From positions 960,001 to 1,024,000 of the forward strand of contig CM000150.2 in the NCBI GenBank assembly GCA_000004695.1: a stretch of DNA of 64,000 bases, given 5' to 3'. The DNA is from Dictyostelium discoideum. Lineage: Eukaryota. This document shows positions 2,846-9,359 of this stretch, in pieces (position 1 is the stretch's first letter; every line of letters begins with the position of its first letter). The notes under the pieces were generated by a model, which saw only the letters and a program-made list of their open reading frames with translations, was not told the origin of the DNA and made no database searches. The position numbers and the translations under genes are program-made.

Positions 2846-3926
2846 ATGAAAACTTTTGTATTATTTGTAATATTATTATGTTTAACATTTTTATCAATTT
2901 CTAAAAGTGAAACATGTCCATTTTCACAATCATTAGTTAGTGGTGCATCAGCAACTTACTACACTGATCCAAATGCAGGTAATTGTGGTTATGAAAATCT
3001 CATGGGACCTCTTGGACCTGGTAATTTATTTATTGCTGCCCTTGGCCCAAATCTCTACAATAATGGTATTTTTCTATTTTATTAAAATTTTGAAAAAAAA
3101 GTTAAAGAATAACCACTTAATTACTAACAAAAATTGTTTAAATTATTATTTTTATTATTATATTTTATTTTTAAAAAAGGAAAAAATTGTGGTCAATGTT
3201 TTAACATCTCATCACCTTATACCAATAGATCAGTAGTAATTATGGCGTATTCTATCATTTATTTTATTTTATTTTTTAATTATTAATTAAAAAAGTTTGA
3301 AATAATATTAATATAAAAAAAAAAAAAAAACAATTTTTTTAAAATTAATTAGTACAGATTCATGTCCAGATTCAGGTTATTGTCAAAGATCATCACATTT
3401 TGATCTTTCAACCCAAGCATTTGATGTTTTAGGTGCACAATCGATTGGTGTATTAGAAGGATTAACTTATTATAAGGTACCATGTGGTGTTAATGGTAAT
3501 GTTAAAATTATGATGAAAGATGGTAGTAATGATTATTGGACAGCTTTTTTAATTTATAATTCAAAAGTAACAATTAAAGATGTCTCTGTAAAGATAACTG
3601 GTAAATCTACATATACAAGTTTAACTCAAAGTTCTTACAATTATTGGATTTCTCCAAATATGGTCCCAGGATCATTTGATGTTAGAATTGAATCTGTTGG
3701 TGGTGAATTCATCTATATAACCATTCCAAAGGTTGAAAGTAGAAAACAATATGAAACATCAAGTCAATTCAGTGTTGATGGTTGTGTTGGAACACCCTCT
3801 GGTCCATCTGGTGGTTTAGGTAGTCCATCAACTGGTGCTAGTATTGGTACTCCATCTGATGCTTCATCATTAACATTATATGCATTATTTTCTTTAACAA
3901 TTTTATTTTTAGTAATGTTAAATTAA
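2846..3926 (+). CDS. Expansin-like protein, tandem paralogue; 3 exons
   Basis: Exons are about 2846-3065, 3180-3246 and 3353-3926. Protein: MKTFVLFVILLCLTFLSISKSETCPFSQSLVSGASATYYTDPNAGNCGYENLMGPLGPGNLFIAALGPNLYNNG/KNCGQCFNISSPYTNRSVVIMA/TDSCPDSGYCQRSSHFDLSTQAFDVLGAQSIG...VPCGVNGNVKIMMKDGSNDYWTAFLIYNSKVTIKDVSVKI... The first two intron positions and phases are the same as in the upstream copy. The upstream copy has one extra intron. Confidence 0.8.
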
Positions 3927-3938
3927 AATTAATAAAGT

Positions 3939-3990
<52 letters not shown>

Positions 3991-4383: not shown

Positions 4384-5467
4384 ATGAAATTTTTAATTAC
4401 AATTTTATTATTATGTATTATAAATTTTGTAATTGGTGAAAATAATTTATTATCATCATCATCTTCAATAATTCCAAGTGAATGTGGAAATCCAAATTAT
4501 CAAAAATTAGAAAGTTATATTAATGGATTAGTTGGGTCTTATGGATACTGTAACGGTACAGAATGGGGTGTAACAGATTTCAAATCATTTTCAATTTTAA
4601 GTGAAAATTCTCAAAATTCTCAACAAACAGCATCAACAATTAAACTTTGGGTATTATTATCAGTTTTTAAAGATATTGAAGCAGGTTTATACACATTAGA
4701 AAAACAAATTGAATGTTCAACTGGTCTTATCACTGTTGAACAATGTATTGCTTTAATGATTGGTGTATCTGATAATTGTGCAACCTATTCATTAACTGCA
4801 TTAACTAAAATTGAATCTGTAAATTCTGTAAGATATTCATTTTTTTTAAATTTTAAAAAATAAAAAAAAAAATAATAAAATATTAATTATTTATTTATTT
4901 ATTGAAATATAGTTATTTTCAGAATTAGGAATGAATGATAGTCAATTTATTGAATGGTGTTTTTCAACATGTGTTGGATATAGTGATCCATGTCCAAACG
5001 TTTCAGGTGGTTCAGGTAATAATGTGTTAAGTTCACATGATGTTATCCATGGATTAACACTTTTACATCAAGGTTCAATTTTAAATCAAACAATGACAGA
5101 GATGACCTATAAATATTTATTGACTGCACATGGTTGGCAACCAATGATTGGATATTATGTTCCAGCACCAGTTGCCCATAAATCTGGTTGGTTACCAGCT
5201 GATGAAGGTTTTGACCCATTCACTGAAAATGATGAAGCCATTGTTTTCTCTGAATGTGGTGATTATGGTGCTTCAATTATGATCACTAGAGATTGGTCAA
5301 ATCCACAAGAAGATACAATCGCTTTAGAATTGGGTGCTTTAATTGGAAAATATATTTATTGTACAATGGTACCATTTGGTAATACAAATGATGGTGCTTC
5401 ATGTTCTTATATTTTATCACAACCAATTCCAACACCATCTTGTACTTCTTCTTCCTCTTCTTCTTAA
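4384..5467 (+). CDS. Secreted class A beta-lactamase-like serine-hydrolase-fold protein; 2 exons
   Basis: Exon 1 is about 4384-4827 with donor GTAAGA. Exon 2 is about 4913-5467 with acceptor ATATAG; an alternative acceptor at 4922 is out of frame. There is a signal peptide, MKFLITILLLCIINFVIG. The SxxK motif appears as ASTIKLWVLLSV (compare TEM STFKVLL). The SDN motif appears as IALMIGVSDNCATYSL. The KSG motif appears as HKSGWLPADEG. The catalytic Glu166 equivalent was not identified. Confidence 0.7.
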
Positions 5468-5527: not shown

Positions 5528-5560
<33 letters not shown>

Positions 5561-5648
5561 GAAAATAAAATAAATCCCAAAAATAAAAAAATAATAAAAA
5601 AAAAAAAATAAAAAAATGTTCGTTTTTTTTCACTCGAGTTTCGTTTCG

Positions 5649-5703
<55 letters not shown>

Positions 5704-5757: not shown

Positions 5758-7822
5758 ATGCCAGCAATTAAATCAAATAAATCAACAGCTTCTGCTTTAG
5801 AAACTACATCAAAAACCACTACTAAAGTTGTTTCAACTGGTTTACCATTAGTAAATAAAGAAAAAGCAATTGAAGCAATCAATGCTCTCAATAAATATTT
5901 CGAACAAAAACAATTAACAGAACCATTAAATATTTTAGAAGAAAATAAAAAAATCTATATAACTTTTGAAACTGATAAATACTATCATAATAGTTTATTT
6001 AAACCACATCATATGTAAGTTTTTTTTTATTTTTTATTTTTTTTATTTTTTTATTTTTATTTTTTTTTTTTTTAATTACTAATATTAAATATCTTTTTTT
6101 TTTATATATATATAGAGTTGCACCACATAAAATTGGTGAATTATCAGAAAAAAGAACATTAGTTATTATTGAAGGTGGTAAAGTAGATGCAATTAATTTA
6201 AAGACTAAATTAGTAGATTTAGGATATACTGGTGCAGTTGATGTTCTTTCAATGAAAGAATTCAAAAATGAATATGTCACAAAAGAACAAATTATTAAAG
6301 TTAGAAAAACATATGATGAATTTGTTGTAGATAATTTTTATAAACAAAAAATTCAACATAAATTTGGTAAAGAATTTCAAAATTCACCACAGTATGTATA
6401 ATATTTTTAGAAAAATGATCAATTATTATTATTACTATTATTATTATCAATTCTAATAATATATTATTATTATTATTTTTTTTTTTTTTAAAAAATAGAT
6501 CACCAAAACTTTCAATAATTGATCAAAAGAATCCAGTTGAATTAATTGAAACATTAAATAAACTTGATAGAATGGTATTGGTTAGAAGATTTACTGAATT
6601 ATTTTTCACACTTCCAGTTGGTACATCAGATTTACCAGTTGAGCAACTCATTGAAAATGTTGCATTCATTGTAGGTGAAGTTTCTAATAAATTACCTGAA
6701 AAAATTAATTCAATTCAATCACTTTCAATTGCTGGTTCAGATATTAGTTTACCATTTTATGTAAATGTTAAAGTACCATCAAATCTTTTATTCAATTCTA
6801 AAGAAAATAAAGTTGAATTAAATCCATTAGCAATACAACAAGAAAATAATAATAATAATAATAATACATCAGAAGAATCAACAACAAATACTACTACTAA
6901 TACCAAATCAAATAAAAAGAGAACAGAACCAGAATCAGAAGAAAAAGAACAAGAACAACCAATTAAAGAAAAACCAAATAAAAAATCAAAAACAACACCA
7001 GTTAAAGAAGTTAAATCAACACCAGCTGCTGTTGTTGCTAAACCAACTACACCAGTTAAAGAAGTTAAAGAAACACCAATTAAATCAAAAACACCAGTTA
7101 AAGAATCAACCCCAGCTGTCGTTGCTGCTGCTGTTGCCGCTAAACCAACTACACCAGCTAAACAAGTAAAGGAAACACCAATTAAATCAAAGACTCCAGT
7201 TAAAGAATCAACACCACAAGAAACCACCACTCCATCTAAACCAACTAAAACTCCAACCAAAGCAACAACCACCACCGCCGCCCCAAAAGAAGTAGAATCA
7301 ACTCCAGTTAAAGAAGTCAAACAAACTCCAGCCAAACAAGTTAAAGAAACTCCAGTTAAACAAGTTAAAGAGACACCAGTTAAACAAGTTAAAGAAACTC
7401 CAGTTAAACAAGTTAAAGAAACTCCAGTCAAAGAAGTCAAAGAAACCCCAGTTAAACAAGTTAAAGAAACTCCAGTCAAACAGGTTAAAGAAACAGTAAA
7501 AGAAGTTGCCGCTCCAGTTAAAGAAGTTAAAGAAACCCCAGTAAAAGAAGTTGCTGCTCCAGTTGCTAAGAAAGTTACTAAAAAAGCAGCCGCTGCTCCA
7601 GTTGAAGTTGCTCCAGTTGAAGCTGCACCAGTTAAAAAAGTTGTTAAAAAGGCTACTGTTGCTGCTGCTCCAGTTGAAGCTGCTCCAGTTAAAAAAGTTG
7701 TTAAAAAAGCTGCTGCTGCTCCAGTTGAAGAAGCTGCCCCAGTTAAAAAAGTTGTTAAAAAGACTGCCACCACCGCCACTGCTACTGCTTCAAAATTAAA
7801 AAAACCAATTGAAAAGAAATAA
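5758..7822 (+). CDS. Ribosomal L1 domain-containing protein (RSL1D1/Cic1-like nucleolar protein) with a Lys/Pro/Val/Glu-rich repetitive C-terminus; 3 exons
   Basis: Exons are about 5758-6014, 6116-6391 and 6499-7822. Donors are GTAAGT and GTATGT. Acceptors are TATAG and AATAG. The segments KAIEAINALNKYFEQKQ...IYITFETDKYY, LVIIEGGKVDAINLKTKLVDLGYTGAVDVLSMKEFKNEY...YDEFVVDNFY and DRMVLVRRFTELFFTLPVGTSDLPVEQLIENVAFIVGEVSNKLPEKINSIQSLSIAGSDISLP are collinear with conserved blocks of human RSL1D1. The C-terminal 300 aa are low-complexity KE/PV/A repeats. Confidence 0.75.
7330..7500 (+). repeat. In-frame tandem 24-nt repeat encoding (ETPVKQVK)n, about 7 near-identical units plus degenerate flanking units
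   Basis: The unit gaaactccagttaaacaagttaaa recurs. Flanking degenerate copies read TPVKEVKE and AAPVKKVVKK. Confidence 0.8.
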
Positions 7823-8357: not shown

Positions 8358-8397
<40 letters not shown>

Positions 8398-8896
8398 ACA
8401 ATGGTTTGAAATTGTCAACATAATAATTAATTAATTCAGGTGATAATTGATCAAACTCAACATTTGTTAAAGTGTAAAAACTAGAGGATCCTTTAGAATT
8501 TGTATTTTCATTAAAAAATTCAATATGGACAGCTGTGCAAACGGTATGAATTTTACCACTTAATAAAGTTAGCATGGATTTAGCTTCTTCTAATGATTTT
8601 GGTTTTTCGAATATTTTATTATCATATACTACAATACTATCTGACCCAATGATAATATTTGGTTGTTGATTTTGTTCTTTTAATTGTATTCCAGCATGAA
8701 TTGCTTTTAATTTTGCATTCTCTAAACAATAATCATAAACTGATTGAAATTGACTTTTATCTAAATCTTCCTTAAATTTTGATTCAACAATTTCAAATTT
8801 TACACCCAATTTACCAAGGTATTCAATTCTTCTTGGTGATGTTGATGCTAAAATTATCTTTAATTTATTAAGTTTGACCAAAATGTCTAAAATCAT
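8117..8896 (-). CDS. Maf-like protein (septum formation Maf / nucleoside-triphosphate pyrophosphatase family); 2 exons
   Basis: Exon 1 is 8896-8400 and exon 2 is 8270-8117, on the minus strand. The minus-strand donor GTAAGG lies at 8399-8394 and the acceptor CCCTAG at 8276-8271. The Maf signature reads [31 protein letters not shown]...[21 protein letters not shown]. The recovered C-terminus [35 protein letters not shown] matches the Maf GxGxxFIexIxGDyxnVmGLP tail. Confidence 0.8.
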
Positions 8897-9316
8897 TTTT
8901 TTTATTTTTTATTTTTTTCTTTTACACTTTGAAAAAAAAAAAAAAAAAAAATAAAAAGGCTTTTTCAAAAAAAAAAGTTTTTTTCGTGGGATTTCAATTA
9001 ATTTTTTTTTTTTTTAATGTAAAAAATCTTTTTTATTTTTTTTATTTTTATTTTTTTTTTTCCCATATATTTTATCAAAACTCAAACCAAACAAAAATAA
9101 ATTTTAAAATAAAAATAATAATAATAAAAAAATAGTGTGTGAATTATAAAAATAAAACTATTGAAAAAAAACTATTGTTTAAAAAATAGATTAAAAAAAA
9201 AAAAAGAAAAGAAAAGAAAAAAAAATAAAAAATAAAAAATCATTTGATCAATTTGATTTTTTTTTCTTTTTTTTTTTTTTTTATTTTTTTTTTTTTTTTC
9301 TTTTTCGACCAACATT

Positions 9317-9359
<43 letters not shown>

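Follow-up and report, generated by a model that had tools for sequence, protein, structure and literature searches.

In beta-lactamases the residue pair Glu166/Asn170 activates the deacylating water. Two described proteins of the class A fold lack the glutamate of this pair. PBP-A, the cyanobacterial class A-fold DD-peptidase Tll2115 of Thermosynechococcus elongatus, has been shown experimentally to be a DD-carboxypeptidase and DD-endopeptidase without an omega-loop glutamate (PMC11189452). LRA-5 (PDB 8EO5), which comes from an Alaskan soil metagenome and has been called a 'precursor' of class A beta-lactamases, lacks both Glu166 and the deacylating water, and its beta-lactamase activity is biologically insignificant until the changes V166E and Y69Q are made (PMC12777564). 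Here we analyse a stretch of 64,000 nucleotides from the social amoeba Dictyostelium discoideum (assembly GCA_000004695.1, contig CM000150.2, positions 960,001 to 1,024,000 of the forward strand; hereafter the window), in which the gene DDB_G0267848 encodes a protein of this fold that keeps the acylation residues and carries invariant cysteines in the columns of both Glu166 and Asn170. We regard the protein as a new, eukaryotic representative of a known protein type, and it may act as a PBP-A-like DD-peptidase.

Bacterivorous eukaryotes have borrowed cell-wall-degrading enzymes from their prey and, to our knowledge, no class A-fold, PBP-A-like enzyme has been described among them. In Dictyostelium itself there is precedent for bacterial-type, peptidoglycan-related serine enzymes in the form of Peptidase S13 (DDB_G0271902) and the class C-like proteins of the LACTB family, which belong to PF02113 and PF00144, respectively, as against PF13354 for the DDB_G0267848 product. 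Peptidase S13 is on the published list of Dictyostelium candidates for horizontal gene transfer, and the LACTB-family proteins have been discussed in a published analysis as possible murein digesters; DDB_G0267848 is neither among the published transfer candidates nor in the analysis of the class C-like LACTB homologues. RefSeq, UniProt and dictyBase already list the gene with its fold label, and searches of the literature by accession, by gene identifier, for PF13354 in eukaryotes and for Dictyostelium secretome and lysosome proteomes returned no study of the protein.

Gene model and identity

Only two GT..AG combinations, with the donor at 4819 or 4828 and differing by three codons, keep the reading frame open. 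The model with donor 4828 and acceptor end 4912 gives a protein of 332 residues, every one of which is identical to the D. discoideum AX4 protein XP_647353.1 (EAL73377.1, UniProt Q55G30). Because of this identity, together with the same order of neighbours in the window, the gene is DDB_G0267848. The exon coordinates and the junction 4827/4913 proposed in the original prediction, which was made from the letters of the window, proved exact. The gene is laid out as follows.

4384..4827, + strand: exon 1 (codons 1-148), with the ATG at 4384; spliced product XP_647353.1/Q55G30
4828..4912, + strand: spliceosomal intron of 85 nt, phase 0, 5.9% GC, with donor GTAAGA at 4828 and acceptor TAG ending at 4912
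4913..5467, + strand: exon 2 (codons 149-332 and the stop at 5465-5467); same spliced product

The 64-kb window holds no paralogue of the gene. For part of the analysis an orthologue 98% identical to the D. discoideum protein (P0001) was the stand-in query.

A class A fold with the acylation residues in place

The protein has the class A beta-lactamase/penicillin-binding protein (PBP) fold, as profile, alignment and structural comparisons confirmed. The Pfam profile PF13354 (Beta-lactamase2), the search originally suggested as a check, matched residues 63-271 with 121.4 bits (cutoff 22, E = 4.4e-35), the match running from position 4 to position 213 of the 214 in the profile, and the two-domain class A fold that defines PF13354 is present. 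In a profile-profile comparison (hhalign) of the family with TEM-1, KPC-2 and CTX-M-15, whose reference sequences were checked and are 100% identical to annotated plasmid genes, the probability was 97.4% and the SxxK, SDN and KxG motifs were all in register. An AlphaFold2 model built from an alignment of 120 sequences reached a predicted local distance difference test score (pLDDT) of 91.9 and a predicted template modelling score of 0.88; it superseded a poor first model from 10 sequences (pLDDT 68.8, below 50 in the KxG region). The motifs and the loop that borders the active site lie at these positions.

4633..4644, + strand: S84-T-I-K87, the SxxK motif, with the nucleophile serine and general-base lysine (Ambler S70/K73), aligned to TEM-1 S70/K73
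4768..4776, + strand: S129-D130-N131, the SDN motif (Ambler 130-132), invariant across the family and aligned to the TEM-1 SDN
5177..5188, + strand: H237-K238-S239-G240, the KxG motif on strand beta3 (Ambler 233-236), with H, K and G invariant
5189..5236, + strand: enlarged beta3-beta4 loop W-L-P-A-D-E-G-F-D-P-F-T-E-N-D-E, bordering the active site, from the family alignment

The three motifs had been read from the sequence in this order (STIK, SDN, HKSG), and they occur at the places then given. Across the eukaryotic family, from Dictyostelium as far as Clastostelium and Gefionella, S84, K87, S129, D130, N131, K238 and G240 never vary, and 110 prokaryotic relatives show hardly any variation at these positions; SxxK specifically is found in 11/11 eukaryotic sequences and in 109/110 of the bacterial relatives. 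The K-S-G that had been taken as a hallmark holds for D. discoideum and fails as a feature of the family, since Ser at position 239 (Ambler 235) is confined to D. discoideum and its closest relatives, and 9 of the 11 eukaryotic sequences have Gln there, giving K-Q-G. Ambler position 237 is an invariant Trp in the family alignment.

Compared with TEM-1, the protein has the same fold (Foldseek template modelling score 0.76-0.78), and S70, K73, S130, D131, N132, K234 and G236 all align, whereas Glu166 and Asn170 are each replaced by Cys, Asp233 is replaced by His, and 15 residues are missing ahead of SDN. The spacing from S84 to SDN is 45 residues, as opposed to 60 in TEM, KPC and CTX-M and 61 in PBP-A, and because of this short spacing the 104/105 wall of the active site is gone. 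The beta3-beta4 loop is about 6 residues longer than in TEM or CTX-M, its WLPA and TENDEA segments are invariant in the eukaryotic family, and it would be expected to take part in substrate binding.

The region of residues 220-259 (VAHKSGWLPADEGFDPF, 5126-5245) also resembled, weakly (E 3e-4 to 0.02), large chloroplast light-harvesting proteins of the LHCI type (PDB 9vfj). The match rests on a short AH..G..P.D.GFDP stretch, and the LHCI proteins carry repeated AH.tGe.PaDrGFDP motifs; as the evidence from fold and profiles leaves no ambiguity, we put the match down to chance.

Cysteines replace both deacylation residues

The feature that sets the protein apart from canonical class A enzymes lies in exon 2.

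4955..4972, + strand: omega-loop equivalent W163-C164-F-S-T-C168, with C164 in the Glu166 column and C168 in the Asn170 column

Two independent alignments, one by hhalign and one by MAFFT --add onto 120 relatives, place Cys164 in the Glu166 column, where the original prediction had found no obvious equivalent of the glutamate. In the MAFFT alignment PBP-A Leu158 falls in the same column and, as this is the published Glu166 equivalent of PBP-A, the placement of Cys164 is supported. Cys168 is put in the Asn170 column by MAFFT; the hhalign placement is a few residues different, and a conserved Asn is absent there too. Both cysteines occur in 11/11 eukaryotic sequences. At Ambler position 233 the protein has His (H237), as does PBP-A, where class A enzymes have Asp. 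Against the NCBIfam equivalog model for class A beta-lactamases (NF033103, bla_class_A) the protein scores 23.9 bits, the cutoff being 200.

Judged on sequence, therefore, DDB_G0267848 does not encode a canonical class A beta-lactamase and, because the omega-loop glutamate is absent, its product is probably not a true beta-lactamase. The doubt voiced on this point in the original prediction is strengthened by the low class A score and the two cysteines.

The two proteins without Glu166 offer the closest comparisons. PBP-A resembles the amoebal protein in having a non-acidic residue in place of Glu166 and a His before KxG; it differs in its identity of only ~20%, its K-T-G as against the amoebal K-Q/S-G and its longer SxxK-to-SDN spacing, and the amoebal protein has in addition 12 conserved cysteines, a putative eukaryotic signal peptide and an intron. 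LRA-5 was the top structural match. It is bacterial and ~21% identical, and becomes an efficient beta-lactamase with just Y69Q/V166E, whereas in the amoebal protein the Glu166 and Asn170 positions are both invariant Cys and the 104/105 region is deleted.

Predicted entry into the secretory pathway

The original prediction had proposed a eukaryotic signal peptide, and the features of the N-terminus agree with one.

4384..4437, + strand: putative signal peptide, residues 1-18 (MKFLITILLLCIINFVIG, followed by E), the sole hydrophobic segment, with small residues at -1 and -3

Residues 3-17 form a hydrophobic segment with a mean Kyte-Doolittle value of 3.05, followed by V-I-G and then E at the predicted cleavage site, and the protein has no other such segment. 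An N-terminal hydrophobic segment is found in every full-length orthologue, and we infer that the protein is secreted through it. The mature protein would have an isoelectric point of 4.24, 12 conserved cysteines and four N-glycosylation sequons; together with the signal peptide, these properties are most economically accounted for as adaptation to the secretory pathway.

Nearest relatives are uncharacterised prokaryotic proteins

The closest non-eukaryotic sequences, from uncultured prokaryotes (P0025, P0026, P0027, P0029 and P0031), are 26-32% identical over the whole domain. Like the amoebal family they have the segment ASTIK(L/I)(W/F)V, a short SxxK-to-SDN spacing, the Trp at the start of the omega loop, VAHKxG and ND(A/E)(G/A)IV. 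They differ in being without the cysteine set and in an SxxK-to-SDN spacing of 35 rather than 45; several have the multidomain build of cell-wall hydrolases (NlpC/P60, M14), and none has been characterised. Those relatives that were checked are prokaryotic: one lies beside mfd on a 110-kb contig and another is labelled 'MAG: serine hydrolase [bacterium]', MAG standing for metagenome-assembled genome. Cluster mates of the near relatives come from Nitrolancea and from a Woesearchaeota MAG, and the best match among GTDB genomes, in a scan with four bacterial sequences, is a Thermomicrobiaceae MAG with 34% identity. The nearest relatives are thus a mixture of unclassified MAGs, Thermomicrobia (Nitrolancea and the Thermomicrobiaceae MAG) and a Woesearchaeota MAG and, because the GTDB scan gave a single moderately close genome, the donor lineage cannot be named.

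Two of these relatives stand out by their context. P0025 is fused to an NlpC/P60 domain, and its gene overlaps, in an operon, a gene for an SLT and Peptidase_M23 protein; P0029, encoded in MAG GCA_030647365.1 (locus L025, 1-4986), is fused to Peptidase_M14. These fusions and neighbourhoods constitute a cell-wall-hydrolase context and point to cell-wall cleavage. The P0029 locus, from an unclassified bacterium, is unusual: the gene is preceded by nine T4SS_pilin (PF18895) genes, all small, as well as by a bAvd/23S_rRNA_IVP gene, the latter from a family linked to diversity-generating retroelements.

In a neighbour-joining tree of 76 sequences (257 columns, 100 bootstraps) the eukaryotic proteins form a clade in 100/100 replicates and the dictyostelids one in 99%, and the eukaryotic clade lies inside the prokaryotic PF13354 radiation. 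The branching inside the dictyostelids roughly matches the species tree. Nesting within bacterial class A enzymes, which had been suggested as a check, was not what the tree gave: TEM, KPC and CTX-M are at saturated pairwise distance from the eukaryotic clade, which falls within a branch of divergent, uncharacterised PF13354 'serine hydrolases'.

A PBP-A-like DD-peptidase as the favoured function

We favour, with a probability of roughly 50%, the reading that the product is a secreted or lysosomal PBP-A-like DD-peptidase that acts on murein stem peptides, because the deacylation residues are lost, because PBP-A and LRA-5 provide precedents, and because the prokaryotic relatives occur in the context of cell-wall hydrolases. 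A prokaryotic gene would have been taken up by an ancestor of the social amoebae and inherited vertically since, and its product would be a secreted or endolysosomal, disulfide-rich serine acyl-transfer hydrolase of the class A beta-lactamase/PBP-A fold. Ser84, activated by Lys87, would attack the D-Ala-D-Ala-type bond of a peptidoglycan stem peptide or, equally possibly, a beta-lactam; Ser129, Asn131, Lys238 and the beta3 strand (Gly240) would place the substrate and form the oxyanion hole, and an acyl-enzyme would be formed. Peptide acyl-enzymes would then be released in the way known from DD-carboxypeptidases and DD-endopeptidases like PBP-A, and beta-lactam acyl-enzymes should be long-lived, amounting to penicillin-binding behaviour, because two invariant cysteines replace the Glu166/Asn170 pair. 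The murein of ingested or neighbouring bacteria would in this way be trimmed or un-crosslinked. The substrate and the biological role, including the part in feeding or defence proposed originally, are what we infer from these comparisons.

Several observations count against this reading. PBP-A groups in the tree with a different bacterial set, away from the amoebal clade; the basis of the analogy is therefore a common set of active-site features, orthology playing no part. The usual sister of the eukaryotic clade, a 12-sequence prokaryotic group that includes the NlpC/P60 and M14 fusions, was recovered exactly in 41% of replicates and in ~55% with minor variants. The signal peptide was recognised from hydrophobicity and the residues at the putative cleavage site, and our literature searches found no biochemical, localisation or knockout data for the protein or any orthologue. 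In the one transcriptome dataset found, the gene was not induced on exposure to Klebsiella pneumoniae; it went down modestly, ~2.4-fold (logFC -1.28, adjusted P 4e-8), which is mild evidence against a dedicated feeding role.

Finally, the deletion of 15 residues before SDN and the long beta3-beta4 loop could mean that the substrate is a different one, outside murein. The protein might accordingly be a serine hydrolase, esterase or amidase that acts on an ester or D-amino-acid compound unrelated to peptidoglycan, endogenous or environmental, the scaffold having been re-purposed after transfer. We regard this as unlikely, given that the prokaryotic relatives, which occur in cell-wall-hydrolase fusions and operons, likewise have a short SxxK-to-SDN spacing and a long loop, and that every residue for acyl transfer of the D-Ala-D-Ala type has been kept.

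The loss of the deacylation machinery favours long-lived complexes, and BlaB and BlaR1 are among the structural neighbours, both of which would suit a non-catalytic or very slow binding protein, secreted as a lectin or sensor of muropeptides or beta-lactams in the manner of BlaR-type sensor domains. Such a protein would hardly account for the strict conservation of the acylation residues across very distant species, which suggests that the chemistry is under selection, and no transmembrane or signalling domain is attached; we therefore consider this explanation quite improbable.

Equally doubtful in our view is a working secreted beta-lactamase, directed against the beta-lactams of soil fungi and actinomycetes (for example to guard food or symbiotic bacteria) and deacylating independently of Glu166. 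The fold and the intact acylation residues would allow it, and exposure to beta-lactams is plausible in a soil habitat on general grounds. Against it stand the class A model score and the invariant cysteines described above, the fact that LRA-5, the nearest solved structure, is essentially inactive until V166E, the fact that PBP-A given a Glu stays orders of magnitude below true enzymes, and the saturated distance of the canonical class A enzymes in the tree.

Going beyond the favoured DD-peptidase reading, it is conceivable, and we put it forward tentatively, that these proteins form a distinct eukaryotic class A-fold family with an invariant Cys-x-x-x-Cys in place of Glu166/Asn170 and six disulfides, serving as a secreted or phagolysosomal DD-peptidase with which phagotrophic protists dismantle or sense murein. 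Redox sensitivity of the active site might be a further consequence of the cysteine pair in the omega loop.

Distribution and origin of the family

Orthologues with 55-98% identity, one copy each, were found in D. citrinum, D. dimigraforme, D. firmibasis, D. purpureum, Polysphondylium violaceum, Tieghemostelium, Cavenderia, Heterostelium and Acytostelium, so that the family is present in all sampled dictyostelids. More distant members (43-48% identity) come from the protosteloid Clastostelium recurvatum, one EukProt transcriptome, the malawimonad Gefionella okellyi (transcriptome only) and two environmental contigs. An exhaustive hidden Markov model search of 1.84 billion representatives returned only five clusters of the eukaryotic type (E <1e-107), the next match being at 2.5e-25, and nothing from Physarum, Acanthamoeba, Entamoeba, animals, fungi or plants. 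The distribution among eukaryotes, of which the original prediction had wanted the Amoebozoa checked, is therefore narrow.

Two metagenome sequences are worth describing separately. P0028 and P0066, from a Joint Genome Institute metagenome and each on a 2162-bp contig, are short 'hypothetical proteins' with the eukaryote-type segments ISISDNCAT and HKQG; probably a single gene of an uncultured protist, split by an intron, was mistaken here for two prokaryotic open reading frames (ORFs).

With a single eukaryotic clade that neighbour-joining, a weak method, nests among prokaryotic PF13354 proteins, the bacterial origin is plausible, as had been thought, and the gene was most likely acquired from a prokaryote long ago. 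The transfer predates the dictyostelid radiation and probably also the split from Clastostelium. An ancient eukaryotic gene, vertically inherited or endosymbiont-derived and lost from almost all lineages, would explain why the malawimonad Gefionella, which is only distantly related to Amoebozoa, has a close homologue (P0024, EukProt) in its transcriptome, in full length, with 43% identity, the same cysteine pattern and HKQG, and it would fit the lack of a nameable donor and an identity of <=32% to any prokaryote. That match comes from the transcriptome of a bacterivore culture; its source may be contamination of the culture, a second transfer or an ancient distribution of wider extent. The five eukaryotic-type clusters, the gap from E 1e-107 to 2.5e-25, the lineages from which nothing was returned and the position of the clade within prokaryotes in the tree make descent without horizontal transfer very unlikely.

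A resident and transcribed amoebal gene

The intron occupies the identical phase-0 position (after ...VN[S/A/E] and before [L/V]F...) in D. purpureum, where it is 64 nt long, and in Cavenderia fasciculata, where it is 60 nt. These species represent the two major branches of Dictyostelia. In all three species a ribosomal-L1-family gene adjoins the orthologue, and the conserved order is expansin-like gene, beta-lactamase-fold gene, ribosomal-L1-family gene, Maf gene. Codon usage is host-like (10.8% GC at third codon positions, exons 30% GC), in a window that is 79% A+T. An intron-less contig of 1107 bp from a public sequencing run carries a full Polysphondylium-type orthologue, uninterrupted across the junction, as expected of a spliced mRNA, and vegetative D. 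discoideum cells transcribe the gene at a low to moderate level (AveExpr 3.58 log2 counts per million). That the gene is a resident and not contamination, as originally proposed, is borne out by the intron position, neighbour order and codon usage. We reject contamination or a pseudogene on account of these together with the invariant catalytic residues and the detected transcripts.

In the window, DDB_G0267848 is preceded by expansin-like ORFs at 1890-2309 and 3510-3926 and followed by the L1-family gene from 5758 and the Maf gene at 8396-8896 (minus strand). The two tandem expansin-like ORFs (+ strand) have very similar C-terminal regions (MMKDGSN[E/D][F/Y]WT...), and the one at 3510-3926 is presumably expl1 (DDB_G0267846). 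A EukProt dictyostelid gene model of 695 residues (P0023) wrongly fuses an expansin-like gene to the beta-lactamase-fold gene; the two therefore adjoin in that species too. At 6572-7822 (+ strand), and especially at 7025-7764, the L1-family gene has a long C-terminal extension rich in Lys, Pro, Val, Glu and Thr, made of tandem repeats of 24, 57 and 102 nt (units of the VKETPVKQ type), and a spurious ORF of 340 residues runs over these repeats on the reverse strand. Homopolymer runs of A or T, 46 to ~120 nt long, flank the genes (895-1015, 3943-3988, 5535-5616, 5649-5703 and 9257-9357), and in the stretch that separates the beta-lactamase-fold gene from the L1-family gene an A run and a T run lie back to back. 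Such long A/T runs are typical of Dictyostelium intergenic DNA.

Significance

If beta-lactams were hydrolysed, the family would represent a eukaryotic reservoir of resistance activity in soil, a possibility against which the sequence argues. The protein would rather be a natural case of a beta-lactamase scaffold evolving away from antibiotic hydrolysis, and as such it bears on the transition from PBP to beta-lactamase for which PBP-A and LRA-5 are the reference points. Should the tentative idea of a distinct eukaryotic family be right, eukaryotes would have in it their first class A-fold peptidoglycan hydrolase. And if the protein is a murein DD-peptidase, it would add a tractable new part to the machinery with which amoebae kill and digest bacteria, in a model organism in which knockouts are routine.

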